Assembly: GCA_963751355.1 (NCBI GenBank)
Contig: CAVVVS010000077.1
Coordinates: 1 to 64,000 of the forward strand
Direction of reading: 5' to 3'
DNA from: an uncultured Ignavibacteriales bacterium
Lineage (GTDB): Bacteria; Bacteroidota; Ignavibacteria; Ignavibacteriales; Ignavibacteriaceae
DNA: 64,000 nt
Shown: positions 409-18,416 of the stretch, in pieces
Layout: every line of letters begins with the position of its first letter
How positions within the stretch are numbered: position 1 is the stretch's first letter
Position numbers and translations under genes: made by a program
The notes under the pieces: generated by a model
Databases searched by the model: none
Told to the model about the DNA's origin: nothing
Seen by the model: only the letters and a program-made list of their open reading frames with translations

Positions 409-1227
409 CTATTTGGCAGTACGATCGATGACAATCTCTACACGTCTATTGTTAGCTCTACCTTCTGCGTTGGAATTGTCCGCAACCGGTCTATTTTCAC
501 CGATACCCTGCGCTAGTATCAAATTGCCCGGGTAGCCGCGCGAGATAAGGTACGACCGAACTGCATCAGCACGCCTCTGTGATAAATCCTGGTTATAACT
601 GGAAGAACCCTGTGAATCCGTATAACCCTCAACGGTTAATCTTCGTTCTTTAGTCTCTAAGAGCGCATCGGCAACACGATTCAGCCGATTCTGCGCCGCC
701 GGCAAGAGTTCCGATTTGCTAGAAGCAAAGAGGACACTGCCCGAAAGTGTAATTACCAGTCCGCGTTCTTCTTCCTTAACTGCTGCAAGTTTTGCAAGGT
801 CTGCTTGTGCCTTAGCTGCCCTATTTTCAGCTTCAAGCCGCGCTTTTTGTTCTGCGGCAAGCTGTTCCGAATTGTTCTTCATTATCTCGGTCTGGGTTGT
901 CTGGTATTCTTTGTTTGCCTTGATGACAATCCCTTTTTCAGCAACTGTTATAGCCAGCGCTTCAGCTGTTTTGGCTTTGCGATCTGCTATGTAAGATAGA
1001 TCTTTCGTACGGTATGATTCAGGTTCATCCATGAAAGACTTTTCAGCTATATCAAGTGCCACCTTAGCCTTGTGTACCTCTGCGGGCACTAATTGTGCAG
1101 CCTGCCCTGTGCTGGCTTGTTGATAAGCCTGACGTGCATCGAGAAGCTCTTTTGGAGGAGTACTTGCGGCGCAGCTAACAAGTAGTAAGGCAAATGCGCT
1201 TATAATAAAATATTTAAAAGTTTTCAC
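409..1227 (-). CDS. OmpA-family lipoprotein with an N-terminal coiled-coil and a C-terminal OmpA peptidoglycan-binding domain
   Basis: Lipobox LLLVSCAAS. The C-terminus carries the OmpA_C signature (EGYTDSQGSSSYNQDLSQRRADAVRSYL...NRRVEIVI). Confidence 0.85.
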   Translation of the reverse strand: MKTFKYFIISAFALLLVSCAASTPPKELLDARQAYQQASTGQAAQLVPAEVHKAKVALDIAEKSFMDEPESYRTKDLSYIADRKAKTAEALAITVAEKGIVIKANKEYQTTQTEIMKNNSEQLAAEQKARLEAENRAAKAQADLAKLAAVKEEERGLVITLSGSVLFASSKSELLPAAQNRLNRVADALLETKERRLTVEGYTDSQGSSSYNQDLSQRRADAVRSYLISRGYPGNLILAQGIGENRPVADNSNAEGRANNRRVEIVIDRTAK

Positions 1228-1230: not shown

Positions 1231-1611
1231 TCACTTCCTTTCTTCCGATGACGGGTTTTCTTTTTGGAGATTTTTTACTTTCTCCAATGCTTTTGCGGCT
1301 TCTGTTTTGTCAACTTCACTATGTGAGAGTGCTACAGCAAGTTCGGCATCTGCCTGGGCTCGTAATAGCATTGACTCAGATTGTGCTTTTTCACCATTTG
1401 CCTCATGTGTCGTGGCTTTTACTAACTCCTCTTTTGCCAGTTGTAAATAGAGTGACGCGCTTGGAATATTTGCTGCACCAACCTCCTCGGCAGCACGAAT
1501 TGCCGATGTAGACGCCTCTTTATTAACTACTACCGGTGTGCTTCCGCAGCCTGCAATCACCGCCGCGAAAAGTAAAAAACCGGCTAACATCCCTATCTTC
1601 GTAAGCTTCAT
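1231..1611 (-). CDS. Small helical lipoprotein (DUF4398-like) co-transcribed with the OmpA gene
   Basis: Lipobox IAGCGST. It lies 4 nt upstream of the OmpA gene. The DUF4398 + OmpA pairing is a common arrangement. Confidence 0.55.
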   Translation of the reverse strand: MKLTKIGMLAGFLLFAAVIAGCGSTPVVVNKEASTSAIRAAEEVGAANIPSASLYLQLAKEELVKATTHEANGEKAQSESMLLRAQADAELAVALSHSEVDKTEAAKALEKVKNLQKENPSSEERK

Positions 1612-1676: not shown

Positions 1677-1720
1677 AATTTCTTTTTGAATTTAGTTTAA
1701 TGTATCGATGATTAACTCTG

Positions 1721-1765
1721 GAATCAATCGAGCAAAGGGATGAAAAAGGGACTACATCGTTTGGG
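1721..1765 (-). promoter_or_regulatory. Conserved upstream element, copy 1 (GAATCAATCGAGCAAAGGGATGAAAAAGGGACTACATCGTTTGGG)
   Basis: One of 9 near-identical copies. It lies 110 nt upstream of the start of 1231..1611 (minus strand). Confidence 0.5.
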
Positions 1766-2278
1766 TGAGCCGATACAAGAATTCGCCTATTAAATAGAGA
1801 GTAAAATCTGCGTGTAATAAATCGTTTTTATGCATAATTTAGGACTAAACAGCTAGCAATAAAATATCAGTCGGATGTGACTTTGGGTTCTAATTTTAGT
1901 ATTGCTGCATTACTTCTTAGATTGACTCAATTTGAATTGACATCGAAAGGTAAAAAGAAAATCTGCCCAAAGAATATCATCGTCTGTCATTCGATTTGCA
2001 TTTTTGTCAATCTATTTTTTTACCAATCTTTGGGCAGAAAAGCACCCTCTGTTGAAAGTCTTGACAGCATGGGGCTGGTTTTCTCTAAAAAGGATTAACT
2101 GCATGTATAGATTTCCGGAAAATATTCGGTTATATCTGTGTGTAATGTTATTCCTTCAATATCAGATATGTTTGTGAGAGGATATATATTCCACAATTAG
2201 TCATTTAAAATCAATAGTTCATTAGGATGAAAATAGAGTACATCTTTTGGATTAATTCTGTGCCCGTACTCAGCAATC

Positions 2279-3409
2279 CTATTTTTTCCGGCATTCCCAT
2301 CCTGAATGGTTCTGTTTGTATTTTGATCGGTCAAAATGTGCCGCTCGATAAAATACATCTAATCCAATACTCATCCCGGGCAGTAAGAATTCATGGATAT
2401 CGGCGCAATCGCAGTGCTCAATTGATACCGATGAAGTATGTATCTGTTCTTCCAAATTGGACAACGTATTATTATAAATTCCTATAACTGAATTTACATA
2501 TTTCTCTGTGCGGTTTACATTGTACACAACAACGCTAACAGTGGTTTGGATATTTCTTGTGAGCCGGTCAAATGATTTTTGTGCGAATCTTTTTGCAAAA
2601 GCATGCACATCTCCGTCCTGCAAACTAAGGTCCAGCCGCTGAAGCGAATTGATGTCTAAATAAGACAAATGAAGATTTTCGGGAGAGGCTATGATGGTTC
2701 GTGAAAATGATCCAAGTGTACCTATAGTGTAAGGTGTACCGCCAAAGCAAGTGGACAGTATAATGAGATCAAACTTTGAGGAATCAGTGGTGAAGCCGTG
2801 CAACCCGCTGGCAAGATCACTGACTGTGAATTTCCGATCCGGATACGATTCATCATAGTCCGCACCGCCGAACTCGGGTATTTCGTGGCCGCAGTAGATA
2901 AACATTCTTACCATTTTGTGCATATTAATTCCGTGGTAGCGCCGATACAACTCAACTTCGGGTTCTAATTTTGATAGCTTCTGATCGCGCCAGTACATTT
3001 CATGCACGATGAGCCGTCCGTTCCGGTAATAATAAAACTCTCCGTCTCGAAGAGGAAAAAAGAACAAGAAGTGTCGCAGTGGTTTTTGATGAAAGATGAA
3101 TACTTCGGCGCTGGGGTTTTGCTGTGCAACTCTTATTGCTCTTGCAAGTGCTTCCTCATCTGCCTGGTATTCTTTACCGGTGGTATCATGGAAGGAGTAG
3201 TCGCCGTCTCCGTGGAGGACGAATATCAATGAGTACTGCGGAGCGAAAACACTATCTTTAGCATGCTGAGATTCACTTTGAACAGTAAGATCGGCACTGC
3301 ATGAGGATAGAAAAACAATAAATGCCGCACAACCAAAACTAACCAGGAACTTTAAGTACCTGATGCCTCGTTCGGATTGGTTGTGCGAGTTTAGCATAAG
3401 ATTGTTCAT
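2279..3409 (-). CDS. Lipoprotein, possible clan CD (clostripain/gingipain-like) cysteine peptidase
   Basis: Lipobox FLSSCSA. The motifs hydrophobic-HG (LIFVLHGDGD) and hydrophobic-xC (LIILSTCFGG) resemble the His/Cys dyad of caspase-fold peptidases. The assignment is weak. Confidence 0.4.
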   Translation of the reverse strand: MNNLMLNSHNQSERGIRYLKFLVSFGCAAFIVFLSSCSADLTVQSESQHAKDSVFAPQYSLIFVLHGDGDYSFHDTTGKEYQADEEALARAIRVAQQNPSAEVFIFHQKPLRHFLFFFPLRDGEFYYYRNGRLIVHEMYWRDQKLSKLEPEVELYRRYHGINMHKMVRMFIYCGHEIPEFGGADYDESYPDRKFTVSDLASGLHGFTTDSSKFDLIILSTCFGGTPYTIGTLGSFSRTIIASPENLHLSYLDINSLQRLDLSLQDGDVHAFAKRFAQKSFDRLTRNIQTTVSVVVYNVNRTEKYVNSVIGIYNNTLSNLEEQIHTSSVSIEHCDCADIHEFLLPGMSIGLDVFYRAAHFDRSKYKQNHSGWECRKK

Positions 3410-3422: not shown

Positions 3423-3857
3423 TTATAATAAAAGTACTACCAGGATGATTATCAGAAGTAGAGCAACTAAACTGATAGTTATAGTTTGGGACGCCTGTTC
3501 CATATCCTGTACTACATAATTAGAAAAAGCATTCAGTTGTGCATCCGACACGCGCTCGTATCCATTTTTGCCTCCAAGTTCGTCTTTTTTCTCTTGAAGT
3601 GCGGTTTTGAAATGCTCAATACCTACGAGATCTTCTTTCGAAATCAGTCCTGAGCTTTCTACCTCGTCCAAAGCTCTGGACATGTTCTGAAATGCATCAT
3701 TTAGGATTTTACGCTTCTCGGATACATTCTCTGTTGCTTTTACTTTGTTTGCTGCATCGCTAAAGTATTTTTGAAGCTTATCTTTCCCGCCCGCATTTAC
3801 CGGGAGAGCTATAATAAACATCATAATGATAGATCCGATAACAATTCGTGCTTTCAT
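3423..3857 (-). CDS. Hypothetical secreted protein with a C-terminal hydrophobic anchor
   Basis: N-terminal signal peptide and C-terminal TM segment (LVALLLIIILVVLLL). It lies directly upstream of 2279..3409. Confidence 0.6.
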   Translation of the reverse strand: MKARIVIGSIIMMFIIALPVNAGGKDKLQKYFSDAANKVKATENVSEKRKILNDAFQNMSRALDEVESSGLISKEDLVGIEHFKTALQEKKDELGGKNGYERVSDAQLNAFSNYVVQDMEQASQTITISLVALLLIIILVVLLL

Positions 3858-4105
3858 TGTTGTTCCCTTTCATGGAGTTGAAACAAAATTGATTGATCAT
3901 CCGGTAGCATTGACATTTCGTTTACGATATAGTCTGTATCTCTCTGAACCAAAGTCAAAACATAAAGCATTATTATATGTCCTTCCTCTATAGCTGTTCG
4001 TAAACTATCACACTATTTGAGCAAAATATTTTTTTGCATTGGTGTTATCTTTTAGTTGTCGAGATAATTTATCCTATATAAGCTATCGAATAAATTGCAG
4101 CAAAG

Positions 4106-4148
4106 AAATCGACCAAAGGGATGAAAAAAGGATTACATCCTTTGGGGG
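4106..4148 (-). promoter_or_regulatory. Conserved upstream element, copy 2
   Basis: AAATCGACCAAAGGGATGAAAAAAGGATTACATCCTTTGGGGG, about 250 nt upstream of 3423..3857. Confidence 0.5.
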
Positions 4149-5536: not shown

Positions 5537-6172
5537 TTACTTCTTATCTTTAATAATATTATTTCGTACTAATTCATCGATTACAAGATCGGCAATATTT
5601 TTTTGAATATCTTTCCCGGAATTCCGGGCGGGAGTATTACTTATAGCGCCCCAAATTATTCGCCCTTTATTTCGTACGACCCAAACCTCTATTGAATGAC
5701 GGTTAACCATTTCAGAATCAATATATGCCGGGTGCTGAACTTCCTGATAATAAGTGGAATATGAATTCCTGAAGGGATTATATTTTAATTCCGCATCAGA
5801 GCTGATATAGCTCTCCACATAATGCGTTTGCGCTCCTTTATGAAGTACACGGATAACCAGGATTCCATCAAAATCGTTATTATGAATAGTTTGAATAATT
5901 TGATTAGTATCAGGTAATACATTTGGAAATAAAATGTAAGATGATGATGCTTCAACACCATGCTTTGAGAGATCGCCGGCAAAAGCATCCTCCCAAATTC
6001 TTCGTTGAACAGGATTTTTCCTTATCGCAATTACAAGTAGCTTTTTCAAGCGGTAATCATGATTTGATGGATCATTCCATACATCAACAAGTTCGGATGA
6101 AGAACAACTTTCGATCTGTATCATTAAGCAGCATAATGTCACTGCCATGATAAAGTTATTATAAAGTTTCAT
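5537..6172 (-). CDS. Hypothetical lipoprotein
   Basis: Signal peptide with lipobox IESCSSS. No recognisable domain. Confidence 0.6.
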   Translation of the reverse strand: MKLYNNFIMAVTLCCLMIQIESCSSSELVDVWNDPSNHDYRLKKLLVIAIRKNPVQRRIWEDAFAGDLSKHGVEASSSYILFPNVLPDTNQIIQTIHNNDFDGILVIRVLHKGAQTHYVESYISSDAELKYNPFRNSYSTYYQEVQHPAYIDSEMVNRHSIEVWVVRNKGRIIWGAISNTPARNSGKDIQKNIADLVIDELVRNNIIKDKK

Positions 6173-6473
6173 GATCTATCTTCTTTCCTGAACGGGGCAT
6201 ATTTAATTATTAGAACCTCTGCAGAATAAATATTTTACTCTATCGTCACTTCGACCAACGGGAGAAATCTTTCAATTCAAAAAGATTTGCAGCATTGGCC
6301 TACGAATTTCAGGCGATGACTCCTTCGAATCGTCGAATAAACTATTCTGCAGAGAATCTATTCTTTTCCTTATTATTTTAAGTAACACAAATTCATAATA
6401 TTTTAGGTGACATGAGTTAATAAGAAATCGGATATCACATAAACAATTTAAAACTCTCCAGAGATCTAAATTA

Positions 6474-6518
6474 ATTCAATGGAGCAAAGGGATGAAAAAG
6501 GGACTACATTTTATGGGG
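6474..6518 (-). promoter_or_regulatory. Conserved upstream element, copy 3
   Basis: AATTCAATGGAGCAAAGGGATGAAAAAGGGACTACATTTTATGGGG, about 300 nt upstream of 5537..6172. Confidence 0.5.
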
Positions 6519-6934: not shown

Positions 6935-8341
6935 TTACTTACCTTTTGAGATTAAATTTATCTCCACTCTTCTGTTCATAGCTCTTCCTTCAGATGTTGC
7001 GTTTGTAGCGATTGGATTTTCTTCACCATATGCTACTATTTTTAAACTACTTCTTTCAACGCCTTTGCGTGTAAGGTAGTCTACAACTGATTGAGCTCTT
7101 TCCCGTGAAAGATTCATATTATATCTTTTCGAACCTTTGCTATCTGTATAACCGGCGATTTCCCATTTGTAGTCAGGATGTGACTTCATAGTACTAATGA
7201 GATTATCAAGAGCGGTATAAGCACTGGGCAGCAGGGCTGACTTATTAAATTCAAAATTCGTATCGCCGCTAAGTACTAACGACTTTATTTCAACAGGTTT
7301 TGTGATTACAACAGTATCCTTCTTGATAGGACATCCTTCGGCATCTACCTGGGTTCCGGTTGGTGTATTAGGACATTTATCCAGATAGTCCGGAACACCA
7401 TCACCATCGGAATCAAGCGGACATCCGTTGGCATCTACCTTTACCCCTGCAGCCGTTTTAGAGCATTTATCGAGATAATCCGGGACACCGTCACCATCGG
7501 AATCAAGCGGACATCCGTTGGCATCTACTTTTACCCCTGCTGGTGTATTAAGGCATTTATCCAGATAATCCGGAACACCGTCACCGTCGGAATCAAGCGG
7601 ACATCCGTTATTATCTACTTTAACTCCTGTAGGAGTATTTGGGCAGTCATCTTTGGAATCTGGAATACCGTCACCGTCGGAATCCTTATCCCTGCCGAAG
7701 TAATAAGATATACCCGCAGTAATAGAGTACAGCATATCATTATTGGAACCGGACTTAATATCATCCCAATAATCTGTTTTCCCCATTATTATTCCACCAT
7801 TAACATTAATACTCATGTTTTTTGATATAATGAATCGTACGCCTACATCGCCATTAAAACCCATCGAATATTTGGTATAATTTCCGGCAACATTATTCGG
7901 CAACTGATTTCCGTCAGCGTCTTTTGGATCAAACCAAACATTGGAAAGTCCTACACCTATCCAGGGATATATATTATCATCTAACGAAAGAGCATAAAAA
8001 ATACCGCCGCCCCAAATATCAAATTTTGTTGAAAATTCATTTGTTGGATTCATAACAGTAGCTGGATTGCCTTTGCCTGCAATAAATCCCGTCTGTCCGA
8101 ATATTCTTAACCCAATATTTCCGGAACCGGTGGAGGGAAGATAGTATTCCAGGGATGCTTTACCGGTGTATTTAATTTTGGTATTTGAATAATCGGTAAG
8201 TCCGAATGTTATTCCACCTTCAGCTGTAAGGCCGAATACATTTGACATAGAATTTTGCTTTGGAATTTGAACCTCATCTTGCGCCATATTAAATTGAGTA
8301 AACCCCAAAAGTATTATCCAAATCAATGTAAATAGTTTCAT
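6935..8341 (-). CDS. OmpA-family outer membrane protein with an N-terminal beta-barrel, 4 thrombospondin type-3 (calcium-binding) repeats and a C-terminal OmpA domain
   Basis: Repeated DSDGDGVPDYLDKC units. C-terminal OmpA signature (AGYTDSKGSKRYNMNLSRERAQSV...NRRVEI). N-terminal signal peptide. Confidence 0.85.
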   Translation of the reverse strand: MKLFTLIWIILLGFTQFNMAQDEVQIPKQNSMSNVFGLTAEGGITFGLTDYSNTKIKYTGKASLEYYLPSTGSGNIGLRIFGQTGFIAGKGNPATVMNPTNEFSTKFDIWGGGIFYALSLDDNIYPWIGVGLSNVWFDPKDADGNQLPNNVAGNYTKYSMGFNGDVGVRFIISKNMSINVNGGIIMGKTDYWDDIKSGSNNDMLYSITAGISYYFGRDKDSDGDGIPDSKDDCPNTPTGVKVDNNGCPLDSDGDGVPDYLDKCLNTPAGVKVDANGCPLDSDGDGVPDYLDKCSKTAAGVKVDANGCPLDSDGDGVPDYLDKCPNTPTGTQVDAEGCPIKKDTVVITKPVEIKSLVLSGDTNFEFNKSALLPSAYTALDNLISTMKSHPDYKWEIAGYTDSKGSKRYNMNLSRERAQSVVDYLTRKGVERSSLKIVAYGEENPIATNATSEGRAMNRRVEINLISKGK

Positions 8342-8383: not shown

Positions 8384-8881
8384 TTATTGAAAGAAATATC
8401 TTATACCCAGACCGGCATCAAGCCCTAACCCTGTAAGCGGAGTAAGCTGAAATACCGGCACTAACTCGACGAATACATCTATCGGTGTTGAATGCGGAAA
8501 CCATGCTATGCCAAAAACACCTCTTATACCTATTGAAGCATCATAACCTCCGCCGCTGTTAAACCTTCCGCCTATTCCATAATAGAGAGGAAATCTTTCT
8601 GTTGCATTTATGGCATCGAATGAGTGCCAGAGATAATCCATGTGAAAATGGACTCGGTTTTGCCTATCGTAGTGACCTTCGTAATGGATACGATCTCCAC
8701 CAACGGACAAGCCAAGCCCGAAATCAAATGCATTTATCTTTGATGTCCAGAGTTTTGCACTCAACCCTGTCGGTTCTCCTAAAATAAGACCAAGCCCAAA
8801 TCCGTGATCCTGCGCCGCACTTGGTTTCGCAAATACAGCCATTATAACCAATACCATACAAAAAATAAGATTCTTATTCAT
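8384..8881 (-). CDS. Secreted glycine-rich protein, possible small outer-membrane beta-barrel
   Basis: Signal peptide, alternating Gly/aromatic pattern, C-terminal ...YFFQ. It lies 43 nt upstream of the OmpA-TSP3 gene. Confidence 0.55.
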   Translation of the reverse strand: MNKNLIFCMVLVIMAVFAKPSAAQDHGFGLGLILGEPTGLSAKLWTSKINAFDFGLGLSVGGDRIHYEGHYDRQNRVHFHMDYLWHSFDAINATERFPLYYGIGGRFNSGGGYDASIGIRGVFGIAWFPHSTPIDVFVELVPVFQLTPLTGLGLDAGLGIRYFFQ

Positions 8882-9027
8882 TAGTAAAATCCCTTTTATT
8901 AATTTCTATTTATTCCTATGTTGATTTGAGCATTCCTAAATCACTATGTCGTTTTCCAATAATGATTTTGCCAGCAATACAATCACTTTTTTCGTTCACA
9001 TAATAAGCTACATGAAGAAGCAAGGTA

Positions 9028-9070
9028 AATCAATCGGTCAAAAGGATGAAAAAGTAGTTAATCCTATAGA
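9028..9070 (-). promoter_or_regulatory. Conserved upstream element, copy 4 (diverged)
   Basis: AAATCAATCGGTCAAAAGGATGAAAAAGTAGTTAATCCTATAG, about 150 nt upstream of 8384..8881. Confidence 0.45.
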
Positions 9071-9289
9071 TCTATAACTACTTGTCTTTAACGAAAAAAT
9101 TTTGTGCCTTATGTATCCCTTTCTGTGGAAAAAATATTTAATAAAAGATTGATGGACGAGACTTCGCCCATGCGACAATGTCGCACCATGAATGCATGCG
9201 GTTTTACGCAATCATGATCCAAGAATATTTTGAATCATAAAATAAAATAAGATTGATGGTATTATACATTGCGTAAAAGGCTGCGATAA

Positions 9290-9415: not shown

Positions 9416-9521
9416 TTTATTACCTCATTTGATGAATTATTAAATACACTTACCTGAACAGGAAATTAAACAACTCCGCAGATCCATTTCATAAATCGAC
9501 CATTAAGTTCACTTAAAATTT

Positions 9522-10208
9522 TCAATCTGCTATTGAAATATCTTTAGCAATCTTTTTCAGAGTTTCGTTTGAGTAAGAATAGTTTGCAACTTCCAAACGT
9601 GTATGCAATAGAAGCTTTTCCATTATATTATGAATATGGCTCTTAACCGTAAAAGTTGAAATGGACAGAGTTTGTGCAATCTCTTTGTTACTTAGTCCAT
9701 TGCCTATTAATCCGATAATCTCCCGCTCCCGTTTCGTCATACGAGTAGCTTCTTTCAACTTAACTCTACCGCCTTTAAGTGCATGCTCAACTATTTTTGA
9801 AAATAGCGATTCGGAAAAATTATTCGGAAGTACACTTTTACCTTCGGAAACTTCATGTATTGTGATAAGAAATTCATCGGGTGATGCATCTTTTAAAATA
9901 AAACCGGATGCACCGGCTTTGACAAATTGATTTATATCTTTCTGCACGGGTGCAAGATCCATCACAATTACCTTTGCATAGGGAAAATCCTTTTTTACGA
10001 CTTCTATCACGGTAAAACTATTTTGGTTGCGTAATCCCAAATCCAGAAGAATAATATCCGGCATTAATTTCTGTATTTTTAGAATGGTGTCCGCACTATT
10101 TCCGGATAACGAAATTACTTTTATATCTTTCTGCTTTTTAAGCATCGCAATAATTCCGTCGCGGAGCAGCCGGTTATCTTCGATTAAAAGCAATTTAATT
10201 TTTTTCAT
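9522..10208 (-). CDS. NarL/FixJ-family response regulator (REC + LuxR-type HTH), orphan
   Basis: REC domain with LLDLGL phospho-acceptor Asp. C-terminal LuxR HTH (REREIIGLIGNGLSNKEIAQTLSISTFTVKSHIHNIMEKL). No histidine kinase nearby. Confidence 0.85.
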   Translation of the reverse strand: MKKIKLLLIEDNRLLRDGIIAMLKKQKDIKVISLSGNSADTILKIQKLMPDIILLDLGLRNQNSFTVIEVVKKDFPYAKVIVMDLAPVQKDINQFVKAGASGFILKDASPDEFLITIHEVSEGKSVLPNNFSESLFSKIVEHALKGGRVKLKEATRMTKREREIIGLIGNGLSNKEIAQTLSISTFTVKSHIHNIMEKLLLHTRLEVANYSYSNETLKKIAKDISIAD

Positions 10209-10237
10209 AAAAAAAATCTATAGAATGATATACAAAA

Positions 10238-10280
10238 TTTCAATCGGGCAATAGAATGAAAAAGGATCTAGCTCTTTTGG
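10238..10280 (-). promoter_or_regulatory. Conserved upstream element, copy 5 (diverged), 30 nt upstream of the response regulator start
   Basis: TTTCAATCGGGCAATAGAATGAAAAAGGATCTAGCTCTTTTGG. Confidence 0.4.
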
Positions 10281-10577
10281 ACGAATAAATAATCAATCCC
10301 TAGTCACAATTTTGTTTATTCGCCAATTTTAAATGAATGAAACACTTTCCGAATTTATTTTAAGATTTAAGTAATTAGAACAAAAACGGACTAACCCGGG
10401 AGAGGCGGAAAGCCGTTTAATCAATCTCAGCGAGGCGCAGCCAATGGCAAAATAAAAGAATGAATGCATGCGGCTTCATGCAGTCAAATTTCAAGAATAT
10501 TTTGACAAAAAAACAATAATATGATTGCAGTTACTTTTTTATAAAATCTTTATTAAAAAAGATTTGAAAACCGCATT

Positions 10578-11480
10578 TCATTTGGTATCCAAAATAATAG
10601 GCAGCCCGTCTTTCCCGCTCCCAATAATTATAACCTTCGCATTGTTTGACTCCGCAATTTTCAAGGTTGCTTCAATCCCTTTCCAGCGAAGTAATTGTTC
10701 GCTGATGCCTGCAGCAACAATCGTCTGAAAATCGGCAATACCCTTTGCTTCAATTCGTTTCCGGTCAGCCTCTTGTTTTTCTTTAGTGAGGATGAATTCC
10801 ATCCTTTGGCTTTCCTGATCAGCTCGTTGCTTTTGCTCAATTGCCTCAGTTAGTTGTACCGGCAAAGCCACATTCCGTATGGGTGTATTCTCAATAGTAA
10901 CGCCCCGGGGAGCAACAGTTTTAGCCAGTTCTTCCTGAATAGCCGAGCCGAGCTGTTCCCTTTCGGTTGAATACAAAGCACTTGCCTGGAAACTTGCTGT
11001 TACTGAGCGGCTGATGGAACGAAACTGGGGAATGAGAATGATGGTTTCATAATCACCCCCGGCAACCGTTTTATAGACGCGAGCTGCGGAATCCGGGTTG
11101 AGCCTGTAAAGCGCACTTACTTCCAAACCGATTGTGAGACCTTCACGGGAAAGAACCTGCATAGTTTCTTTATGTTCTTTAGTCTGGATTGAATATTTTA
11201 TTACTCTTGCAAGCGGATTAACGATATTGATTCCCGAAGGTAGGGGCTTATCCGATACAATACCAAAAAAATCTACAACACCGACATGACCGGCGGGAAC
11301 CTGTGTGAAACACTGAAGCAACGCAATAATTCCGAAAAAACCCGCAACAAAAATGCTAACTTTACCAGCCGTATGAAATGCTATATTGTTTTGATTTATT
11401 TTCTTTTTTGTACCCATCCATACTAATATGGCAATTACGGCAATTAACAGTGATAAAATAAATATCATTCTAACCCCCAT
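10578..11480 (-). CDS. SPFH/band-7 (prohibitin/HflC-like) membrane protein
   Basis: N-terminal TM, SPFH core (QVPAGHVGVVDFFG...) and a C-terminal coiled-coil. Confidence 0.8.
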   Translation of the reverse strand: MGVRMIFILSLLIAVIAILVWMGTKKKINQNNIAFHTAGKVSIFVAGFFGIIALLQCFTQVPAGHVGVVDFFGIVSDKPLPSGINIVNPLARVIKYSIQTKEHKETMQVLSREGLTIGLEVSALYRLNPDSAARVYKTVAGGDYETIILIPQFRSISRSVTASFQASALYSTEREQLGSAIQEELAKTVAPRGVTIENTPIRNVALPVQLTEAIEQKQRADQESQRMEFILTKEKQEADRKRIEAKGIADFQTIVAAGISEQLLRWKGIEATLKIAESNNAKVIIIGSGKDGLPIILDTK

Positions 11481-11536
11481 TTAAAATTAATGTGCATTAT
11501 TAATTGCAATTTAAGATGCAACTAATTGGAATTGGT

Positions 11537-11582
11537 AATCAATCTATCAAAAGGATGAAAAATGGTCTAATGCTCAATTGGA
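11537..11582 (-). promoter_or_regulatory. Conserved upstream element, copy 6 (diverged)
   Basis: TAATCAATCTATCAAAAGGATGAAAAATGGTCTAATGCTCAATTGG, about 60 nt upstream of the SPFH gene. Confidence 0.4.
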
Positions 11583-11775
11583 ATAAAAAAACGATGCTTC
11601 CTATCTCGAGATTATTAGCTTTTCTGCAAAATAGTTTATTTATCATCTCGAAGAACTCATCGACTGAGATCTGCGCGCCTATGATGCAAATTTTTTAGAA
11701 TTGTGAAATTTCTCCCTTCGATAGAAATGACAATTAAGTAAAATATTTATTTCGCATAGATTCTAGTATAAATAT

Positions 11776-13257
11776 TTAATTAATGTTGTTTGAAACCTTC
11801 CGGAAATGATAACCATAGATAGAGAACATAATAGCGAGTGAAAAGAGTTTAGGCTTTATGAATAAAGACCAGAAGAAGAGTTTCCAGTAATAAAGTCTTT
11901 CCTTTCCGACGATACCTAATTTTAAAATTGATTTCATTAACGCTTGTATATAACTAGAATTTATATGGAATATTTTCTTTTTCTTAGGGTCAAAGTCTTT
12001 TAGAAAACTAGTAACGCGTTCATAATAATATTTGGGTGAATATATAGTATCCAGTATTTTTTTGTACCCTTCCATCAATAGTTCCGAGTTCATTTTTGGA
12101 ATAAAATTAATGGAAAAATCAGTATTGTTGCCTGTAAAATCGTTAAGCAGTCTTCCTTCCTTCTCCAATCGTTTATGAAGCTTGGTCCCTGCCGGGGCAT
12201 TTAACAGTCCTACCATTGCGGTAACTATTCCGCTTTTCTGAATAAATGCTGTAAGCTTTTCAAATATCGAAGCCGGATCATTGTCAAACCCAACAATAAA
12301 TCCTCCCTGAACTTCCAATCCGAATTGCTGAATCTTCTTTATGCTTAAGAGTAAATCGCGATTTCTGTTTTGTGTTTTGTTACATTCAAGTAAACTTTCT
12401 TCATTAGGTGATTCGATTCCGATGAATACAGCTTCAAACCCGGCTTTAACCATCAGCCGCATAAGCTCTTCATCATCGGCAAGATTAATTGAAGCCTCGG
12501 TGTTCAAGTAAAAAGGACTTTTCCTTTTTTCCATCCATTCTGCAATTGCCGGTAGAATTTCCTTTTTCAGCTTCGATTTATTCCCGATAAAATTATCATC
12601 TACAAAAAAGACAGGACCTTTCCACCCGCTAAAATACAATTGATCCAACTCGGCGATGACCTGCTCTTTGGTTTTGGTTCGTGGTTTTCTTCCGTAAAGA
12701 ACGGTTATATCGCAAAAATCACAGTCATAGGGACAGCCTCTTGAGTATTGAATATTCATTGACGAATAATCATTCATTGAAATTAGATCCCAGCTGGGCA
12801 GCGGGGTAGCGGCAATATCAGCCCATTGATCCGTAGTATAAATATGTTCCGGCTTTCCGGCATTCAAATCATTAATAAATTGTGGGAGAGTTATTTCGGC
12901 TTCTTTTAGTACCAAATAATCAACATTATCATAGTTTTCACTGAGGCTGGTAAAATGCGGTCCGCCTGCTACAATTTTTGTATTTAGTTCATTACATCTT
13001 CGTATCACCTCATTTGCCGATTGACTTTGAACGGACATGGCACTGATAAAAACATAATCAGCCCATAAGATATCATCATCTTTCAGTTCGGTTGTATTTA
13101 AATCAATAAGCTTTTTGTTAAAACCGGAAGGCAGTATAGATGCAATTGTTAATAATCCCAACGGCGGAAAACTTGCTTTTTTTGAAACAAATTTGAGCGC
13201 ATGTTTAAAGCTCCAAAAGGTGTCGGGGTAAACAGGGTATACTAAAAGGATATTCAT
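11776..13257 (-). CDS. B12-binding-domain radical SAM protein (DUF4070-type C-terminus)
   Basis: N-terminal B12-binding-like region (ILLVYPVYPDTFWSF...PPLGLLTIA). CxxxCxxC motif (CPYDCDFC). Confidence 0.8.
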   Translation of the reverse strand: MNILLVYPVYPDTFWSFKHALKFVSKKASFPPLGLLTIASILPSGFNKKLIDLNTTELKDDDILWADYVFISAMSVQSQSANEVIRRCNELNTKIVAGGPHFTSLSENYDNVDYLVLKEAEITLPQFINDLNAGKPEHIYTTDQWADIAATPLPSWDLISMNDYSSMNIQYSRGCPYDCDFCDITVLYGRKPRTKTKEQVIAELDQLYFSGWKGPVFFVDDNFIGNKSKLKKEILPAIAEWMEKRKSPFYLNTEASINLADDEELMRLMVKAGFEAVFIGIESPNEESLLECNKTQNRNRDLLLSIKKIQQFGLEVQGGFIVGFDNDPASIFEKLTAFIQKSGIVTAMVGLLNAPAGTKLHKRLEKEGRLLNDFTGNNTDFSINFIPKMNSELLMEGYKKILDTIYSPKYYYERVTSFLKDFDPKKKKIFHINSSYIQALMKSILKLGIVGKERLYYWKLFFWSLFIKPKLFSLAIMFSIYGYHFRKVSNNIN

Positions 13258-13290
13258 TAATTAACTCTTTAAGTCGTTATAAATATTTTC

Positions 13291-14835
13291 CTAAACAGCA
13301 ATTCGTTCGGCTATTGTTTTTAGATAAGCATTCTGATCATGGAATATTGCCCCTTCAGGAAGCCAATCCCACAGCGGTCCCAGTTCATTTTGAATAATGT
13401 CTTTATAGAATTGAGGAAGTTCGGTCGTTTGCTGTTCAAAATAGTCCCGGAATTTTGTATCTGAATTAAGCTGTGAAAGTATTTTTTTATTATATGCAAC
13501 TCTGCCGAAACCTTCCTCGGATATTGCGCGCACAACATTCATCCATCTAGGAATGAATGCTTTTGTTGCAATCAACCGTTTCATAATTGCGGCCCATGAA
13601 AAAGTATGTTCACCTAAGCTGATAGTATGAGCATAAAACTCCTGCCACGAATAATTTTTCGGTTTCACATTCATAGCATGATTATTATCCAGGAAATGAA
13701 ACGGGAACGGAAGTACCCGGTTTGATTCTTGATACTCGAGGTTTAGCGGCGCTGCCCTTCCGAATGCGGATAATAATGAATAGCCGGGAAATGCCCCGGG
13801 GGTCATATCTACGAATTTTTTAGTAAGTTCAAACGGCTCTTCGCCTTTGTCGGCGTCGAGTCCCAAAACAAAATTAGTTTGAACATACGGAATATATCGT
13901 AAGATCATGTTAACCTGTTCCGCGATCTGTTTAACCTTATCCATCCCGGTCGTACTTCCCGTTTTTGATTTGTTCCCGAGATCATACCACGATTCAATGC
14001 CCGGCAGCATGGCGCCGAACCCATTTCGTTTAAGCCGTTTTACATGAGGTTCGGACAGCAAGGATAAACTACTTTCTGCGATAAAATCTATGCTATTCAT
14101 GGGTACAACCTCCTCTATTGCATCCATGTATTCGTTAAACCGGATTCCAAAGTTCGGGTCATGCCATCCTACAAGAGGGCGTTTGAACTTTGTAAGCAGA
14201 AACGATAAGTCTTCCTTCAAAACATCAAAGTCAAGCGGCTGATACGCTACAGTTGAGTCAATACAGAAACTGCAGGTGTAAGGGCATCCTAAACTGCCGA
14301 GCATAGGGACCATTTTTATTAGCGGAGCCTTTTTGAGTGTCGGTTCAATAAATTTCCATCTCTCCTTAACCCCGGGAATTGATAAAGGGTGGTTTTGAGC
14401 CGTAAGATGCAGACCCGTGGGTCGGTGGGGTGAACAATCGTGCAAAATTTCATGAATAATATTTTTATCCGTAAACCCTGCAACATAATCGAAATATTTT
14501 ACCGAATCCTCCGGGTAGCAGCGTGCATGAGGTCCTCCCAACACAGTAACCGCACCGTGAGACCGAAGGAGATTACTTAAAGCATAAGCTGTTTGTGCTG
14601 CTTCGGTAAACGCACATATAAAAATTAAATCGGCATTCTGCGGCAGTTCTTTTATTAGATCCTCTTTGCCTGTATAACAAATATAGGTGACGTTATGACC
14701 CTCTTCTTCACACCACACTCCTACAACTTGCGGCATTATACTTGCAAAGTTCGCATTCATTATGCGCGCAAATAATTTTTTGTTAGGCTTTTTTGAAACA
14801 AGGTCTATTATTCCTACCTGAAGTTTGCGACTCAT
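13291..14835 (-). CDS. B12-binding-domain radical SAM protein
   Basis: CxxxCxxC motif (CPYTCSFC). Same architecture as its neighbour. The two are in tandem with a 33-nt gap. Confidence 0.8.
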   Translation of the reverse strand: MSRKLQVGIIDLVSKKPNKKLFARIMNANFASIMPQVVGVWCEEEGHNVTYICYTGKEDLIKELPQNADLIFICAFTEAAQTAYALSNLLRSHGAVTVLGGPHARCYPEDSVKYFDYVAGFTDKNIIHEILHDCSPHRPTGLHLTAQNHPLSIPGVKERWKFIEPTLKKAPLIKMVPMLGSLGCPYTCSFCIDSTVAYQPLDFDVLKEDLSFLLTKFKRPLVGWHDPNFGIRFNEYMDAIEEVVPMNSIDFIAESSLSLLSEPHVKRLKRNGFGAMLPGIESWYDLGNKSKTGSTTGMDKVKQIAEQVNMILRYIPYVQTNFVLGLDADKGEEPFELTKKFVDMTPGAFPGYSLLSAFGRAAPLNLEYQESNRVLPFPFHFLDNNHAMNVKPKNYSWQEFYAHTISLGEHTFSWAAIMKRLIATKAFIPRWMNVVRAISEEGFGRVAYNKKILSQLNSDTKFRDYFEQQTTELPQFYKDIIQNELGPLWDWLPEGAIFHDQNAYLKTIAERIAV

Positions 14836-15078
14836 GTAAAACCCTATTTTTACTCATCTATATATTAACGACTTTTACACCAAGTGTTATAAATTACTTT
14901 TTGTAATCCTGAATATTGCCGAAGGTATGCCCATGGGTAATCAAAATCACTTTTCATGAGTACAAGATTCAACAAGATTTTTGCAAAACATTGGTTATCA
15001 ATATAGATTATTTGAACGGATATTGTCCGTTGAACTATGCTGCTGTTATCAGTCAGCTTTAATTGTCAATAAGATATA

Positions 15079-15135
15079 AAAATCTCATTCGATATAAATG
15101 GTTCAAACGGATGAAAAAGGGATTAATCCTAAAGG
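15079..15135 (-). promoter_or_regulatory. Conserved upstream element, copy 7, about 270 nt upstream of the radical SAM pair
   Basis: AAATCTCATTCGAT..CAAACGGATGAAAAAGGGATTAATCCTAAAGG, with a 12-nt insertion in the 5' box. Confidence 0.45.
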
Positions 15136-15472
15136 ATGATAATTTTTGCTGCACCATTTTCCAAATCCTTTGTATAGATTGGTTTGATTATTGCGATAAT
15201 AGCGCCATATGTTGTACCGAATTTAATATTTTTCGTTTAAAATTATTAATTTATAACTCGGTGAAACCGGAACTGAATGAAAGAATAGAGTTTTGTTTTT
15301 ATGCAATTTCTATTACAATTTAAGCAGGTATACGTCCATGCCGCCGCAGCTTTCTCGATATCAAAAAAATATCCAACATTTTTCTAAGAATTTCAGTATA
15401 AAGAAGTTAATTGCATTTTACCGCTCTGTCTGTTCCATGTTTTCTGTTAAATATGTTATTAGACCTTCTAGA

Positions 15473-15850
15473 TTATTTTTTGTGATTCATTTTGTAGCCC
15501 GACATCTTCATTGGTTTTGTACTGTCACCCATCATGCTGAGGGCTTTTGGAGTCACATCGTTTATACTTGTTTTTTGATCTACCATACTCGAAACTATGG
15601 AATTCATCTCAGGATTATCCATTATTGATCTTCCGAGCTTAGTCATTTCTATTTTGTTGCCGGTTGTTTTATCCAACAACATTGCCATCATCATACTCCG
15701 CAATTCGGAATCTGACGATATTTTAGTCATCCATTCTTTAGTCTGAGCATTTATTTCTGTTTTGTCATTATTGCTTTTGACCTGTGCAATTAATGGTATA
15801 GACATTAATGCTAAGAATAATATTAAATATTTCATTTTTCTGCCTGTCAT
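15473..15850 (-). CDS. Secreted methionine-rich protein, possible metal-binding (copper?) periplasmic protein
   Basis: The likely true start is MKYLILFLALMSIPLIAQ at 15835. There are multiple Met clusters (MMMAML, SMMGDS, KPMKMSGYKMNH). Confidence 0.5.
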   Translation of the reverse strand: MTGRKMKYLILFLALMSIPLIAQVKSNNDKTEINAQTKEWMTKISSDSELRSMMMAMLLDKTTGNKIEMTKLGRSIMDNPEMNSIVSSMVDQKTSINDVTPKALSMMGDSTKPMKMSGYKMNHKK

Positions 15851-15950
15851 TTTTTATGGCTATATAAAATTCAAATTAATTTTGAGGGAATTTCGTAGGG
15901 ATCTGCATAAACTTTCAAATAATTATTTCCTGTTTATAATGAAGACGGAT

Positions 15951-16139
15951 CTATTCCAGTTTATCAATCATTGTAATAACTTCTGTTTTAGTTTTTGATA
16001 ATTTTTCCTGTAACTTCGTCAATAGGTCGCGTTCATCGCCGTTGTTTAATTTTAAATCGTCTGCCGTTATTGTTGGATATGCAAGTCTAATTTTTTCTTT
16101 AAGAGCAAGCCAATTCCCTTTATTATTTATCTGGTACAT
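15951..16139 (-). CDS. Small hypothetical protein (62 aa)
   Basis: ORF-track entry that lies 65 nt downstream of element copy 8. Confidence 0.4.
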   Translation of the reverse strand: MYQINNKGNWLALKEKIRLAYPTITADDLKLNNGDERDLLTKLQEKLSKTKTEVITMIDKLE

Positions 16140-16189
16140 ATTAGAGCCTCTTTTTGGTTATTAAGTATTAATATATTACGGAGAAAGGG

Positions 16190-16241
16190 AAAGTAAGTAA
16201 ATAGGGCAAAGGGATGAAAAAGGGACTAATCCTTTTATTGG
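16190..16241 (-). promoter_or_regulatory. Conserved upstream element, copy 8 (best consensus match)
   Basis: AAGTAAATAGGGCAAAGGGATGAAAAAGGGACTAATCCTTTTATTGG. Confidence 0.5.
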
Positions 16242-16379
16242 ATGTGTCATGTTACGCAGCAATGTTTATAATATTATTCTATTATCTCGATAACATCGCA
16301 GCACAGAATAGTTGCCTGTGCCGCGAAACTAAATTATGCCGGTCATTACTCAACATGACCGAGTAGATAAATATAATAG

Positions 16380-16850
16380 TTATTTCGATTGAATCTTTTT
16401 AGCCATTTTATCTTTTTCAAAAGATATTGCGATACAAACATTTCTTACGGATTCATTAGTTGAATTATTAGCCGCTTCATAAATTGCATGATCACCAATA
16501 TCTGAATGAAGTTCATCCAGTGCAATGGCTGCAGTTATGCGTAATTGGACACCTAATTTTTCATTTTTTACGATGTCCATCAAAGGTTTAACAAATGTAC
16601 TAAATGAGTTGTCGGGGAAAATCTGCTCAAGTTCCCAGAGTGTTTGCACTGATGATAATTTTACGTTTGTAGAACCATCCTGTAAATGTTGTAAAAGCAT
16701 TTTTTCTGTATTTTTCAAATTCTTCTTTAAAGTTTCAGAATTATGTTGTTCCGAAAAACGCGTTGGTCTATCCTGTGCAAAAGATAATGTACTCGCAAAG
16801 AAGAAAAGTAATGACATTGAAAGAACTAATGAGAATATGTGATTTTTCAT
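16380..16850 (-). CDS. Secreted HEAT/armadillo-like repeat protein
   Basis: Signal peptide and helical repeat-like segments (LRITAAIALDEL, VRNVCIAI). Confidence 0.5.
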   Translation of the reverse strand: MKNHIFSLVLSMSLLFFFASTLSFAQDRPTRFSEQHNSETLKKNLKNTEKMLLQHLQDGSTNVKLSSVQTLWELEQIFPDNSFSTFVKPLMDIVKNEKLGVQLRITAAIALDELHSDIGDHAIYEAANNSTNESVRNVCIAISFEKDKMAKKIQSK

Positions 16851-16985
16851 TTTAGTAACCCCTTATGTTTATTAATAATTAATTTGTTTTATTAGCCGGT
16901 CTAATTTTTTTTACAGAGATATGCAAACTGGCTGCATACTTATGGTTTTTAATTTAGGTGATTAATGTTAATAATAATGGAAAGT

Positions 16986-17036
16986 AAATGATTGATCAAT
17001 AGTACAAAGGGATGAAAAAGGGATTAATCCTCTTGC
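16986..17036 (-). promoter_or_regulatory. Conserved upstream element, copy 9, which overlaps the last 4 codons and the stop of response regulator 17024..17755
   Basis: AAGTAAATGATTGATCAATAGTACAAAGGGATGAAAAAGGGATTAATCCTCTTGC, about 150 nt upstream of 16380..16850. Confidence 0.5.
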
Positions 17037-17755
17037 TCTATGTTTGATGAAAAAGAGTGAGTAGTACCATTAAAATCTTTAGAAGAATGAGCATATTTAG
17101 CAATCTGTACCCTCGTGTGAAGCGCAAGTTTTTCAAGTATGTTATGGATATGACTTTTTATTGTGAATGTTGATAAATGCAGCTTTTGTGCAATTTCTTT
17201 ATTAGTTAAACCATCGGAAACTAAGTCTATCACTTGTCGTTCCCGTTTTGTCATCCTTACGGATCCAATTATCTTTGAAGTATTTGAATCATTTAATGCC
17301 TGAATAACTATCTGGGAAAAAAGTGATTCCGTTAAATTTGGCGGCAGCACCTTAGCTCCGCCTGCAACAGATCTAATTGTTCGAAGAAAATCATCTACAG
17401 TTGCATCTTTGAGGATGAAGCCGGAAACCCCGGCTTTTACAAACATCAATACATCTTCCTGTATAGGGACAAGATCCATCACTATAATTTTTGTGTTATG
17501 AAAATCTTTTTTTATTACTTTTACAAGTTGTAAACTATTTTGATTGCGTAGGCCGAGATCAAGAAGTACAATATGTGGTTCAAATTTACGGATGTATTCC
17601 TGTGCTTTTATACAATCACCAAAAGCAGCCACTGCTTTTAGATCATGTTGTTCCGCAATCATTGCCGATATGCCATCTCGTAAAAGCCGGTTATCTTCGA
17701 CAATTAGTATGGATATCTTTTTTGATTTATTCATTACCCCCTTAAGGAAATACAA
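17024..17755 (-). CDS. NarL/FixJ-family response regulator, a paralog of 9522..10208, orphan
   Basis: Roughly 55% identical to the other response regulator over the REC + LuxR HTH domains. The true start is probably MNKSKKISILIVEDN. Confidence 0.85.
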   Translation of the reverse strand: MYFLKGVMNKSKKISILIVEDNRLLRDGISAMIAEQHDLKAVAAFGDCIKAQEYIRKFEPHIVLLDLGLRNQNSLQLVKVIKKDFHNTKIIVMDLVPIQEDVLMFVKAGVSGFILKDATVDDFLRTIRSVAGGAKVLPPNLTESLFSQIVIQALNDSNTSKIIGSVRMTKRERQVIDLVSDGLTNKEIAQKLHLSTFTIKSHIHNILEKLALHTRVQIAKYAHSSKDFNGTTHSFSSNIEQED

Positions 17756-18416
17756 TTATTAATATATGTAATTTATTATGATGATTCAAATTATATTATG
17801 CAAGCTAATTGATTCAAATAATTATTTAAACGATCATTCATCCTAAATGATGCACGAATATTATGTAAAAGGTAAAAATTCTTAAATCACCTAATTGAAG
17901 AATATTAAAAGTTAGTTGAAAAAATACTGCGGATGAAAATAGAATATTTGCCAAAATAATAACCGAAATAAATTGTCGTTTTGCCTGTCCGGAATTAACC
18001 ATTTCTTTTATTATTGTAAGAATCAGTAGTAATATATAATCTATAATTGCTTAAGTAAGATAGTTTTAACATTAGATATTGTTTTACATGAGTTAACGGA
18101 ATAATTAAAAACATTAATTTAACCTAATTTTAAATTAACCATCTAAGGCTTTAAACCCAAATAAGTTCCGAATTCCACAGCAAGTCTCGACAAGTCGGGA
18201 AATTTTCACTAATTTTATTTATGCAAATTAATATCATTTGTCATGTTGACCTGCCCAGGGAGGGAAAATTTTCAAAATTGTTCGAATCATAAACCTTGAG
18301 ATTCTTCAACACCTAAGCCGGGTTAGAGGGACAAAAGTAAATCATTTCTCTTTTCACGAGTGACTTGAGTTATTAATCAAATAATCGAATTAAATAGATG
18401 AAATAAAATTAATAAC

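Follow-up and report, generated by a model that had tools for sequence, protein, structure and literature searches.

Two response regulators in an Ignavibacteriales gene island

The stretch of DNA analysed here (the window; positions 1 to 64,000 of contig CAVVVS010000077.1 from an uncultured Ignavibacteriales bacterium) carries two paralogous genes for response regulators (RRs), denoted RR1 and RR2, within a 17-kb gene island in which each transcription unit is headed by the same module of approximately 65 bp, hereafter the element, present in ten copies at 1.7–17 kb. RR1 (228 aa) is encoded on the minus strand at 9522..10208, and RR2 (236 aa), likewise on the minus strand, at 17024..17734. 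The open reading frame (ORF) of RR2 remains open to a TTG at 17755; the ATG at 17734 is probably the true start, since the resulting 236-aa product is identical to database protein P0001. The two genes form monocistronic units located 6.8 kb apart. An earlier note on this DNA had placed a pair of NarL/FixJ paralogues with about 55% identity here, and the ORF listing and Pfam bear this out: both ORFs are present, and BLASTP aligns the two proteins with 57% identity over 215 aa (E=2e-87).

Both proteins combine an N-terminal receiver (REC) domain (Response_reg, PF00072; E=1e-12 for RR1 and 3e-14 for RR2) with a C-terminal GerE/LuxR-type helix-turn-helix (PF00196; E=2e-16 and 5e-18, respectively), which is the domain composition of the NarL/FixJ family. 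The top matches among solved structures are NarL, VraR, DesR and DevR, with full-length alignments to NarL 1a04, the best PDB match (E=2e-29), and to VraR 5hev, the second best (E=1.3e-28). Orthology to a named regulator (NarL, NarP, UhpA, FixJ and others) was not reached in NCBIfam, where the best scores, to NarL, were 138–141 bits at a cut-off of 250. Judged by these comparisons, RR1 and RR2 are members of the family and orthologous to no characterised regulator.

A probable composite promoter module heads the units of the island

A position weight matrix (PWM) scan of the whole window returned ten matches to the element, all on the minus strand within 1718–17035 and with scores of 35–56. 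The other 47 kb of the window gave no comparable match; after the ten copies, the highest score in the entire window is 19.9. The copies were also recovered with a repeat finder, as nine good instances and one weaker one. All ten lie on the gene strand, each 5′ of a minus-strand transcription unit. The same orientation prevails in a set of 80 loci from other genomes encoding relatives of RR2, which were fetched by means of the RR and then scanned for the element: 239 matches were found on the RR strand and 8 on the opposite strand. The best-matching locus among species representatives is 78% identical, and the homologues mark the source as an Ignavibacteriaceae-like metagenome-assembled genome. 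Elements are present at orthologous promoters in dozens of species, and precede the same gene families in independent metagenomes.

The consensus of the element, read on the gene strand, is CCAAAAGGATTAGTCCCTTTTTCATCCCTTTGnnCGATTGA. A sequence logo of 204 distinct copies from the 80 related genomes displays the strongest conservation at element positions 6–40 and, unexpectedly, a TAnnnT box at positions 60–65 (T60 in 70%, A61 in 82% and T65 in 91% of copies), which is found at exactly these positions in six of the ten window copies. In combination with TTGAnn at positions 37–42 and a 17-nt spacer, this box corresponds to sigma-70-type -35 and -10 hexamers, with a start predicted near position 72. 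No start codon of a downstream gene falls at element positions 40–70 and 13 fall at positions 70–75, a distribution consistent with a +1 near position 72 and thus independent support for the promoter register.

The strongest internal similarity of the site is that between two direct 7-mers, one at position 13 and the other, 11 bp further on, at position 24 (r=0.94), and an inverted copy of the 7-mer is located at positions 0–6. The site thereby appears to hold three half-sites of approximately 7 bp and of TCCyTTT(G) type, one inverted and two direct, spaced 11–13 bp, which would share one face of the helix at about -71 to -42. As the conserved block is in fixed register with both promoter boxes, the element is with high probability a composite in which a 36-bp upstream activator site (UAS; about -71 to -36) abuts a sigma-70-type promoter. 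An activator-dependent sigma-70 promoter is recognised by -35 and -10 hexamers 17 ± 1 nt apart whose position relative to a conserved upstream site is constant; the element has this anatomy, the dependence on an activator being predicted only; with -35 and -10 boxes that are ordinary in themselves, the extra 36 bp call for such a factor.

Other assignments of the element were rejected. Its reading as the start of a small ORF (MKKGLIL...) fails because only two copies run into an ORF of 50 aa or more, and these ORFs are on the other strand from all the genes. The logo lacks the GG/GC -24/-12 pattern of a sigma-54 promoter, and contains no boxes of the extracytoplasmic function (ECF) type, its hexamers being the ordinary TTGAnn-17-TAnnnT. 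A scan of the window against Rfam gave no match, and hence no known RNA family for the element.

The two regulator genes stand in different relation to the element

The element driving RR1, copy 5 of the earlier note, occupies 10215..10279 on the minus strand, with the UAS at 10244–10279, the -35 box TTGAAA at 10238–10243 and the -10 box TAGATT at 10215–10220. A generic promoter and terminator scan agrees with this placement; its overall counts were in no excess over shuffled sequence (42 versus 39 and 7 versus 6.4, respectively), and it served solely to cross-check individual sites. The spacing of about 30 nt reported earlier between this copy and the start of RR1 is that of the conserved block, which ends at 10240, 31 nt before the ATG at 10208, and past which the module continues with its two boxes. 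The predicted +1 coincides with the A of the ATG (10208), so that the RR1 mRNA would be leaderless, and a longer RR1 ORF is ruled out by an in-frame TAG within the -10 box. The ATG of RR1-type genes is found at element position 71–72, the predicted +1, in the window and in seven relatives; in more distant genomes the RR1-type genes have a leader of about 40–80 nt, a -10 box CATCTT and an 18-nt spacer.

The 5′ flank of RR1 is delimited by a terminator-like hairpin with a T-run (10465..10482, minus strand), which follows the gene for an SPFH protein and stands between that unit and the promoter of RR1. A related copy is found 3′ of RR1 at 9152–9171 (repeat family D10). A 68-nt repeat at 9188–9255 and 10460–10527 (76% identical) contains a TGCATG...CATGCA hairpin and a T-run, and looks like a common terminator placed after the SPFH gene and about 350 nt past RR1. 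The 350 nt from the RR1 stop codon to the downstream hairpin contain no convincing ORF. The promoter copy of the SPFH gene itself (11514–11578) resembles the RR1-type promoters of other genomes in its spacer and in its -10 sequence GCATCT. This copy and the long-leader RR1-type promoters (e.g. L074:5310 and L079:10722) have the spacer ttACATCCcaATTAGTT in common, with GCATCT at the -10 position; the spacer includes a further CATCC half-site-like word, which could be an extra site for feedback control.

At RR2 the arrangement is reversed. The element at 16971..17035 (minus strand; copy 9 of the earlier note), with the UAS at 17000–17035, the -35 box TTGATC at 16994–16999 and the -10 box TATTAT at 16971–16976, lies over the end of the gene. 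The overlap previously described is real: GGGATTAATCC is located at 17020–17030, the TAA stop at 17024–17026, and the last codons of RR2, CAA GAG GAT, constitute element positions 1–9. The regulatory wiring that had been read into it is not upheld, however, because this copy is the predicted promoter of the next gene, encoding a 156-aa protein (16380..16850), and the overlap is more simply a matter of compaction without regulatory meaning. Upstream of RR2, overlapping sigma-70-like promoter candidates (e.g. TTGAAT-16-TATAAT) are found at 17761..17817 on the minus strand, without a UAS.

The layout recurs across Ignavibacteria. The 81 loci (the 80 relatives and the window) contain 135 RR-family genes, 86 of RR2 type and 49 of RR1 type. 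An element stands directly upstream of 33 RR1-type genes and of 2 RR2-type genes; conversely, an element begins within 400 nt after the stop codon of 62 RR2-type genes and of 7 RR1-type genes. After RR2-type genes it usually begins 10–43 nt past the stop, and at -11 in three cases, the window included. At least two RR paralogues are encoded in 50 of the 80 fetched loci, and the gene order RR2, element, RR1 is seen in many genomes; the 30 loci with a lone RR have the RR2 type followed by the element, some of these loci being short. The RR2-type gene stays beside the element while the downstream gene varies, and it stands at the head of the island, at its upstream edge. Like RR2 itself, its orthologues possess a conserved sigma-70-type promoter-like region of their own, devoid of the upstream site. 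The recognition helix, T[VI]KSH[IV]HNI[LM]EKL, is invariant in the RR1-type and RR2-type groups alike.

Two proposals of the earlier note can be set against this pattern. That one regulator is under the control of the element agrees with the complete promoter module before RR1, as before the 33 RR1-type genes. That the other is the upstream activator fits the position of RR2-type genes at the island head, their own promoters and the near absence of elements upstream of them; the binding of an RR to the element, which the proposal also entails, is a prediction.

Regulon content and candidate sensors

The gene families driven by the element comprise RR1-type genes, B12-binding radical-SAM proteins, KaiC, MlaE-F-D, and DUF4398 and OmpA proteins, and in addition OmpA proteins with thrombospondin type-3 repeats (OmpA-TSP3), a Met-rich secreted 125-aa protein, a 62-aa protein and YtxH-like proteins. 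KaiC homologues with two RecA-like domains (Pfam E=3e-108) are encoded at L026:11835-13574 and in 16 other loci, none of them in the window; the element precedes the gene in 16 of these 17 cases, and the gene often comes directly after the RR2-type gene. Relatives with 46–50% identity, in high-GC genomes, still have MlaEFD, an AI-2E transporter and OmpA-like genes as neighbours. Because the links to Mla, OmpA and the AI-2E transporter persist at this distance, the reading of the regulon as one of envelope and stress functions is, as far as gene content can tell, well founded. NCBIfam named none of the island proteins at its cut-off, the 62-aa protein giving merely a weak 25-bit similarity to PRK10428.

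The window encodes no histidine kinase: HisKA, HisKA_2, HisKA_3 and HATPase_c were all absent by Pfam from 50 window ORFs, including all of at least 200 aa, in agreement with what had been reported for the 64 kb. With monocistronic RR genes and no kinase in the window, the locus is not a kinase-regulator envelope-stress operon of the LiaSR, VraSR or CpxAR type. The description of the RRs as orphans holds for the window and not for the family, as a kinase is found within the island in 13 of the 80 related loci, often beside a CheB-CheR fusion protein. A PAS-HisKA-HATPase kinase occurs in nine loci, in seven of them directly 5′ of the RR2-type gene (gaps of 38–147 nt); a CheB-CheR-PAS protein occurs in seven loci, a PAS-HisKA_2 kinase follows RR2 in about six, and a 46%-identical relative has CheB-CheR-PAS-HisKA-HATPase as a single protein beside it. 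A likely input module, a PAS kinase with CheB-CheR-PAS, can thus be put forward from these neighbourhoods, outside the window. The earlier expectation of a self-contained envelope-stress regulon consequently stands with respect to the envelope- and stress-like gene content, and fails with respect to self-containment, the window having no sensor and elements occurring also in stretches without an RR.

Atypical receiver domains

The receivers of RR1 and RR2 retain the phospho-acceptor Asp, the acidic pair and the Lys of canonical receivers, which are invariant in alignment A1. However, the Thr/Ser switch residue (T87 in CheY, S87 in NarL) is replaced by Asp in both, a position aligned to S87 of NarL and to the Thr of VraR in the PDB alignments, and the T+1 position is Leu instead of the usual small residue. 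Among 128 island RRs, the acidic pair is kept as E in 126 and D in 123, the equivalent of D59 in 127 and the Lys in 127 (all >96%), and the switch position is Asp in 119, as it is in 111 of the 120 top homologues. For the tally of 128 RRs, the key residue correspondences with NarL were re-checked against the PDB alignment. As a receiver counts as a pseudo-receiver when any one of the five active-site residues (DD, D, T, K) is missing (PMC12632262), RR1 and RR2 are pseudo-receivers by the replacement of T with Asp. The combination of Asp at the switch and Leu at T+1 implies that phosphorylation may work poorly or not be needed.

A search of 1.84 billion representative proteins extended the clade to 136 representative clusters, in which the switch position is D in 62, G in 37, N in 25 and Ser in 2, and T+1 is bulky. 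On this survey, loss of the switch residue defines the whole clade. In more distant members further residues are lost, namely the acceptor Asp in 38 and the Lys in 41 of the 136 clusters. In L212:1204-5445 and L213, a distant RR has Gly for the acceptor Asp and Glu for the Lys, and its gene follows those for CheB-CheR-PAS and for a 188-aa PAS-only protein, the latter in the position taken by the full PAS kinase in Ignavibacteria. Kinase and receiver chemistry appear to have degenerated together in this lineage.

Evidence on whether the regulator family reads the site

The element most plausibly finds its reader in the RR family itself, an assignment that we regard as probable, with appreciable room for doubt. 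No DNA-binding family other than the RRs is encountered repeatedly in the islands, a sigma factor being present in just 8 of 80, and RR genes are both driven by the element and flanking it. One recognition helix in both paralogue groups matches a single conserved DNA site. A search that started from the DNA motif, in metagenomes, retrieved 38 stretches with the full element (median 3.7 kb), five of which hold an RR of the family; the expected rate, for about two such genes per genome, is approximately 0.25% of stretches. Of 50 ORFs downstream of these elements, 37 are homologous to ORFs of the RR-anchored islands. In a 64% GC genome encoding a 48%-identical relative, matches to the core motif are confined to the 100 nt after the RR stop; one of the two patterns used was composed after viewing that very sequence, so that the significance is inflated and the case is suggestive at most.

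Several observations weigh against this assignment, or against the circuit proposed below. The remaining 33 of the 38 element-bearing metagenome stretches have no RR, including stretches of 10–14 kb with two to three copies, which indicates that the element needs no RR nearby, and the presence of an RR in all 80 loci is by construction, since the loci were fetched with the RR itself. No element was detected with several more distant relatives that have the same helix. Relatives with a His-to-Arg exchange in the helix and other distant relatives were inspected, likewise without finding an element apart from the 64% GC lineage, and a de novo repeat search around a 58%-identical relative gave no analogous motif. 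Within Ignavibacteria the helix is invariant, so that covariation of protein and DNA cannot be shown. The sequence does not tell whether RR1 or RR2 would be the primary activator; RR binding, expression and start sites are predictions from sequence; the window has no kinase; and Asp at the switch with Leu at T+1 leaves open whether a kinase would act on either RR.

A proposed two-tier circuit and its alternatives

The circuit is most likely of an ordinary kind, an activator-dependent, two-tier regulon for outer-membrane and stress functions run by the NarL family. As an account of the locus as a whole, a two-tier regulon conserved across Ignavibacteria is the explanation we favour, if only slightly over its negation; for the RR2-to-RR1 cascade in its full detail, the chances are roughly even. 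According to this scheme, RR2, located at the island's upstream edge, would be transcribed constitutively from a promoter of its own that lacks an upstream activator site, would bind the upstream site of the element as a multimer and recruit RNA polymerase, and would thereby activate some ten units, with genes for OmpA-family proteins, DUF4398 lipoproteins, SPFH, radical-SAM and small secreted or stress proteins, and elsewhere also MlaFED and KaiC. RR1 would be one of the targets, made from a leaderless mRNA. Since it has the same recognition helix as RR2 and is driven by the element, it would strengthen the response or make it last longer, acting as an amplifier or feed-forward tier and possibly in the form of an RR1–RR2 heterodimer. 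The signal would originate outside the window, most likely from a PAS histidine kinase and a CheB-CheR-PAS partner, because elsewhere the genes for these adjoin RR2-type genes. From the arrangement of sites and genes we infer the RR–DNA contact, the direction of the cascade and its input.

Alternatively, the site could be read by another factor, an unlinked transcription factor or a group-2-like sigma factor, with the RRs merely members or neighbours of the regulon, RR1 as a target and RR2 placed where it is by chance or co-inheritance. Such a factor would account for the many element-bearing metagenome stretches that have no RR and for the distant RR relatives that share the recognition helix and have no element; moreover, in most of the eight loci with a sigma-70-family gene, this gene and one for a 123-aa protein lie directly 5′ of the RR2-type gene. 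However, the sigma gene is restricted to these 8 of 80 islands and absent from the window, no second DNA-binding family recurs, and the -35/-10 boxes are those of ordinary sigma-70, so that the 36-bp extension would still need an activator. Chance placement of RR2 is also at odds with the adjacency of RR2-type gene and element, which is kept despite the varying downstream gene. We therefore consider another reader unlikely.

A different view concerns the mode of control and not the reader. RR1 and RR2 might belong to a large uncharacterised clade of NarL-type pseudo-receivers in the FCB group of phyla that has abandoned the classical phospho-switch, the switch Asp and T+1 Leu holding the receiver in or close to an active state. 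The level of regulator, from constitutive RR2 and self-amplifying, leaderless RR1, would then determine the output, or could be replaced in this role by phosphorylation-independent contact with the CheB-CheR-PAS sensor or with KaiC. The loss of the switch residue throughout the clade would fit such a scheme, as would the further loss of the acceptor Asp and the Lys in more distant members and the PAS-only protein in place of the kinase in one lineage; taken as a whole, it is improbable to about the same degree as the previous alternative.

Somewhat less likely again is an exchange of roles, in which RR1 is the real, autoregulating activator and RR2 either competes for the same sites or represses from them, alters specificity as a heterodimer partner, or controls a different set of genes. 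The identical recognition helix would permit this, as would the element in front of RR1-type genes, and paired regulators have precedents in BldM/WhiI (PMC4125116) and CmrR/CmrT (discussed in PMC12632262). A self-activating RR1 on an activator-dependent promoter would nonetheless require a starter, for which RR2 with its own promoter is the obvious candidate, and the 30 of 80 loci with only one RR, some of them short, have the RR2 type followed by the element. Finally, the idea that the element is a selfish or structural repeat (repetitive extragenic palindromic, REP-like, or miniature inverted-repeat transposable element, MITE-like) with no regulatory role and only incidentally near the RRs, as its short, multi-copy, intergenic nature and confinement to one region of the window might suggest, is contradicted by its strict orientation to genes (239 versus 8), its fixed register to the -35/-10 boxes, the lack of terminal inverted repeats and of an Rfam match, and its recurrence at orthologous promoters in dozens of species and before the same gene families in independent metagenomes, and is thus highly implausible.

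Comparison with known systems

The proposed pair of regulators on common sites has a parallel in NarL and NarP of Escherichia coli, paralogous NarL/FixJ-family regulators with the same domain architecture as RR1 and RR2 that read the same heptamer sites. Like them, RR1 and RR2 have their DNA-reading residues in common and would be expected on common promoters with sites upstream of -35. Unlike NarL and NarP, which have canonical receivers and the kinases NarX and NarQ, they have Asp as the switch residue and no kinase nearby. The wiring of NarL and NarP differs as well, as neither paralogue is known to be transcribed from the shared site, unlike RR1. An envelope-related regulon with an autoregulated regulator gene is likewise known for LiaR and VraR, envelope-stress regulators of the NarL family; however, LiaRS and VraSR each combine kinase and regulator in one operon, with a canonical receiver and palindromic sites, whereas the present locus has no adjacent kinase, three half-sites and two paralogues. 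With regard to promoter anatomy, the half-sites of the element (about -71 to -42, abutting -35) resemble the BvgA promoters of Bordetella, where NarL-family half-sites extending from far upstream to -35 are filled cooperatively and recruit RNA polymerase. BvgA is a canonical regulator phosphorylated by BvgS, and the sequence of its half-sites differs from that of the element.

The nearest precedent for a circuit of paired atypical RRs is that of BldM and WhiI of Streptomyces, orphan atypical NarL/FixJ regulators arranged in a hierarchy in which heterodimer formation widens the set of targets (PMC4125116). It belongs to another phylum and its biology is developmental, as opposed to an envelope and stress island; moreover, RR1 and RR2 keep the phospho-acceptor Asp, acidic pair and Lys, with only the Thr/Ser missing, and a heterodimer is hypothetical here. 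The model for CmrR/CmrT of Clostridioides difficile, in which signalling alters the amount of a pseudo-receiver via positive autoregulation (PMC12548384; discussed in PMC12632262), matches the role proposed for element-driven RR1. CmrR and CmrT differ from RR1 and RR2 in being of the OmpR family, in sharing one operon with a kinase, and in that just one of the two is a pseudo-receiver.

Implications

Transcriptional control in Ignavibacteria is almost undescribed, and searches of a paper library found nothing on regulators, promoters or KaiC of this group. The locus offers a delimited activator site and a promoter consensus with a predicted start, by which regulons could be annotated in hundreds of metagenome-assembled genomes. 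It provides a candidate master-regulator pair for an outer-membrane and stress response, with OmpA proteins, MlaFED, SPFH, radical-SAM enzymes and KaiC among its targets. New here are the conserved pair of pseudo-receivers, wiring in two tiers whose regulators have the same recognition helix, and a second tier predicted to be leaderless. The many natural receivers in which Asp, acidic pair and Lys are kept and the switch residue is Asp are in addition a clean test case for switching in pseudo-receivers, which is an open question (PMC12632262). Should the RRs turn out not to bind the element, both the promoter module and the clade of pseudo-receivers would stand as findings, with no connection between them.

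Other transcription units and features of the window

The remaining copies of the element, all on the minus strand, drive the other units of the island (as predicted promoters). From the RR2 end, the copy at 16173..16237 precedes the genes for the 62-aa protein (15951..16139) and the Met-rich secreted 125-aa protein (15473..15850), the latter without a Pfam match. Genes of this Met-rich family are located directly 5′ of RR1-type genes and often co-transcribed with them, with gaps of -4 to 66 nt in six of nine adjacent pairs; the protein may be a periplasmic accessory or feedback component of the system. The copy at 15070..15134 drives two genes for B12-binding radical-SAM proteins (13291..14835 and 11776..13257), that at 11514..11578 the SPFH/band-7 gene (10578..11480), and that at 9005..9069 the genes for a 165-aa DUF3996-like protein (8384..8881) and an OmpA-TSP3 protein (6935..8341). 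A 211-aa gene (5537..6172) and the genes after it are driven by the copy at 6451..6515 with a leader of 272 nt, a 144-aa gene (3423..3857) and a 376-aa gene (2279..3409) by that at 4080..4144, and genes for a DUF4398 lipoprotein (1231..1611) and a DUF4398-OmpA protein (409..1227) by that at 1699..1763. The weak tenth copy at 2186..2250 (PWM score 35) is placed directly after the stop of gene 2279..3409 and has no clear ORF downstream, none exceeding 33 aa before the copy at 1763; this tenth copy may be a promoter in decay or the driver of a small RNA or peptide.

The OmpA-TSP3 gene contains, at 7329–7684, three tandem 90-nt repeats that encode the thrombospondin type-3 repeats. A sequence of approximately 160 nt with terminal inverted repeats CTCTGCAGAATA...TATTCTGCAGAG is found twice in opposite orientations, at 6205–6365 (+) and 11610–11770 (-), the copies being about 78% identical. 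The copy in the 272-nt leader of 5537..6172 adopts a closed multi-branch fold (-50.9 kcal/mol, z=-5.5), whereas the other is not so folded (z=-0.2); the repeat could be a MITE-like insertion or a structured leader RNA.

Outside the island, a sequence of about 250–280 nt is duplicated with 95–96% identity at 28981–29261 and 32230–32467, before plus-strand genes for a protein with a type IX secretion system (T9SS) tail (at 29256) and a NERD-UvrD helicase (at 32491), and could reflect a recent duplication or a mobile promoter region. A second motif, CTATAATnnnTTAAnnnATATAGTTTTA, is located before four plus-strand genes, at 18041–18073, 29001–29033, 32250–32282 and 36581–36613, and may represent another promoter or operator family, unrelated to the RR-linked element.

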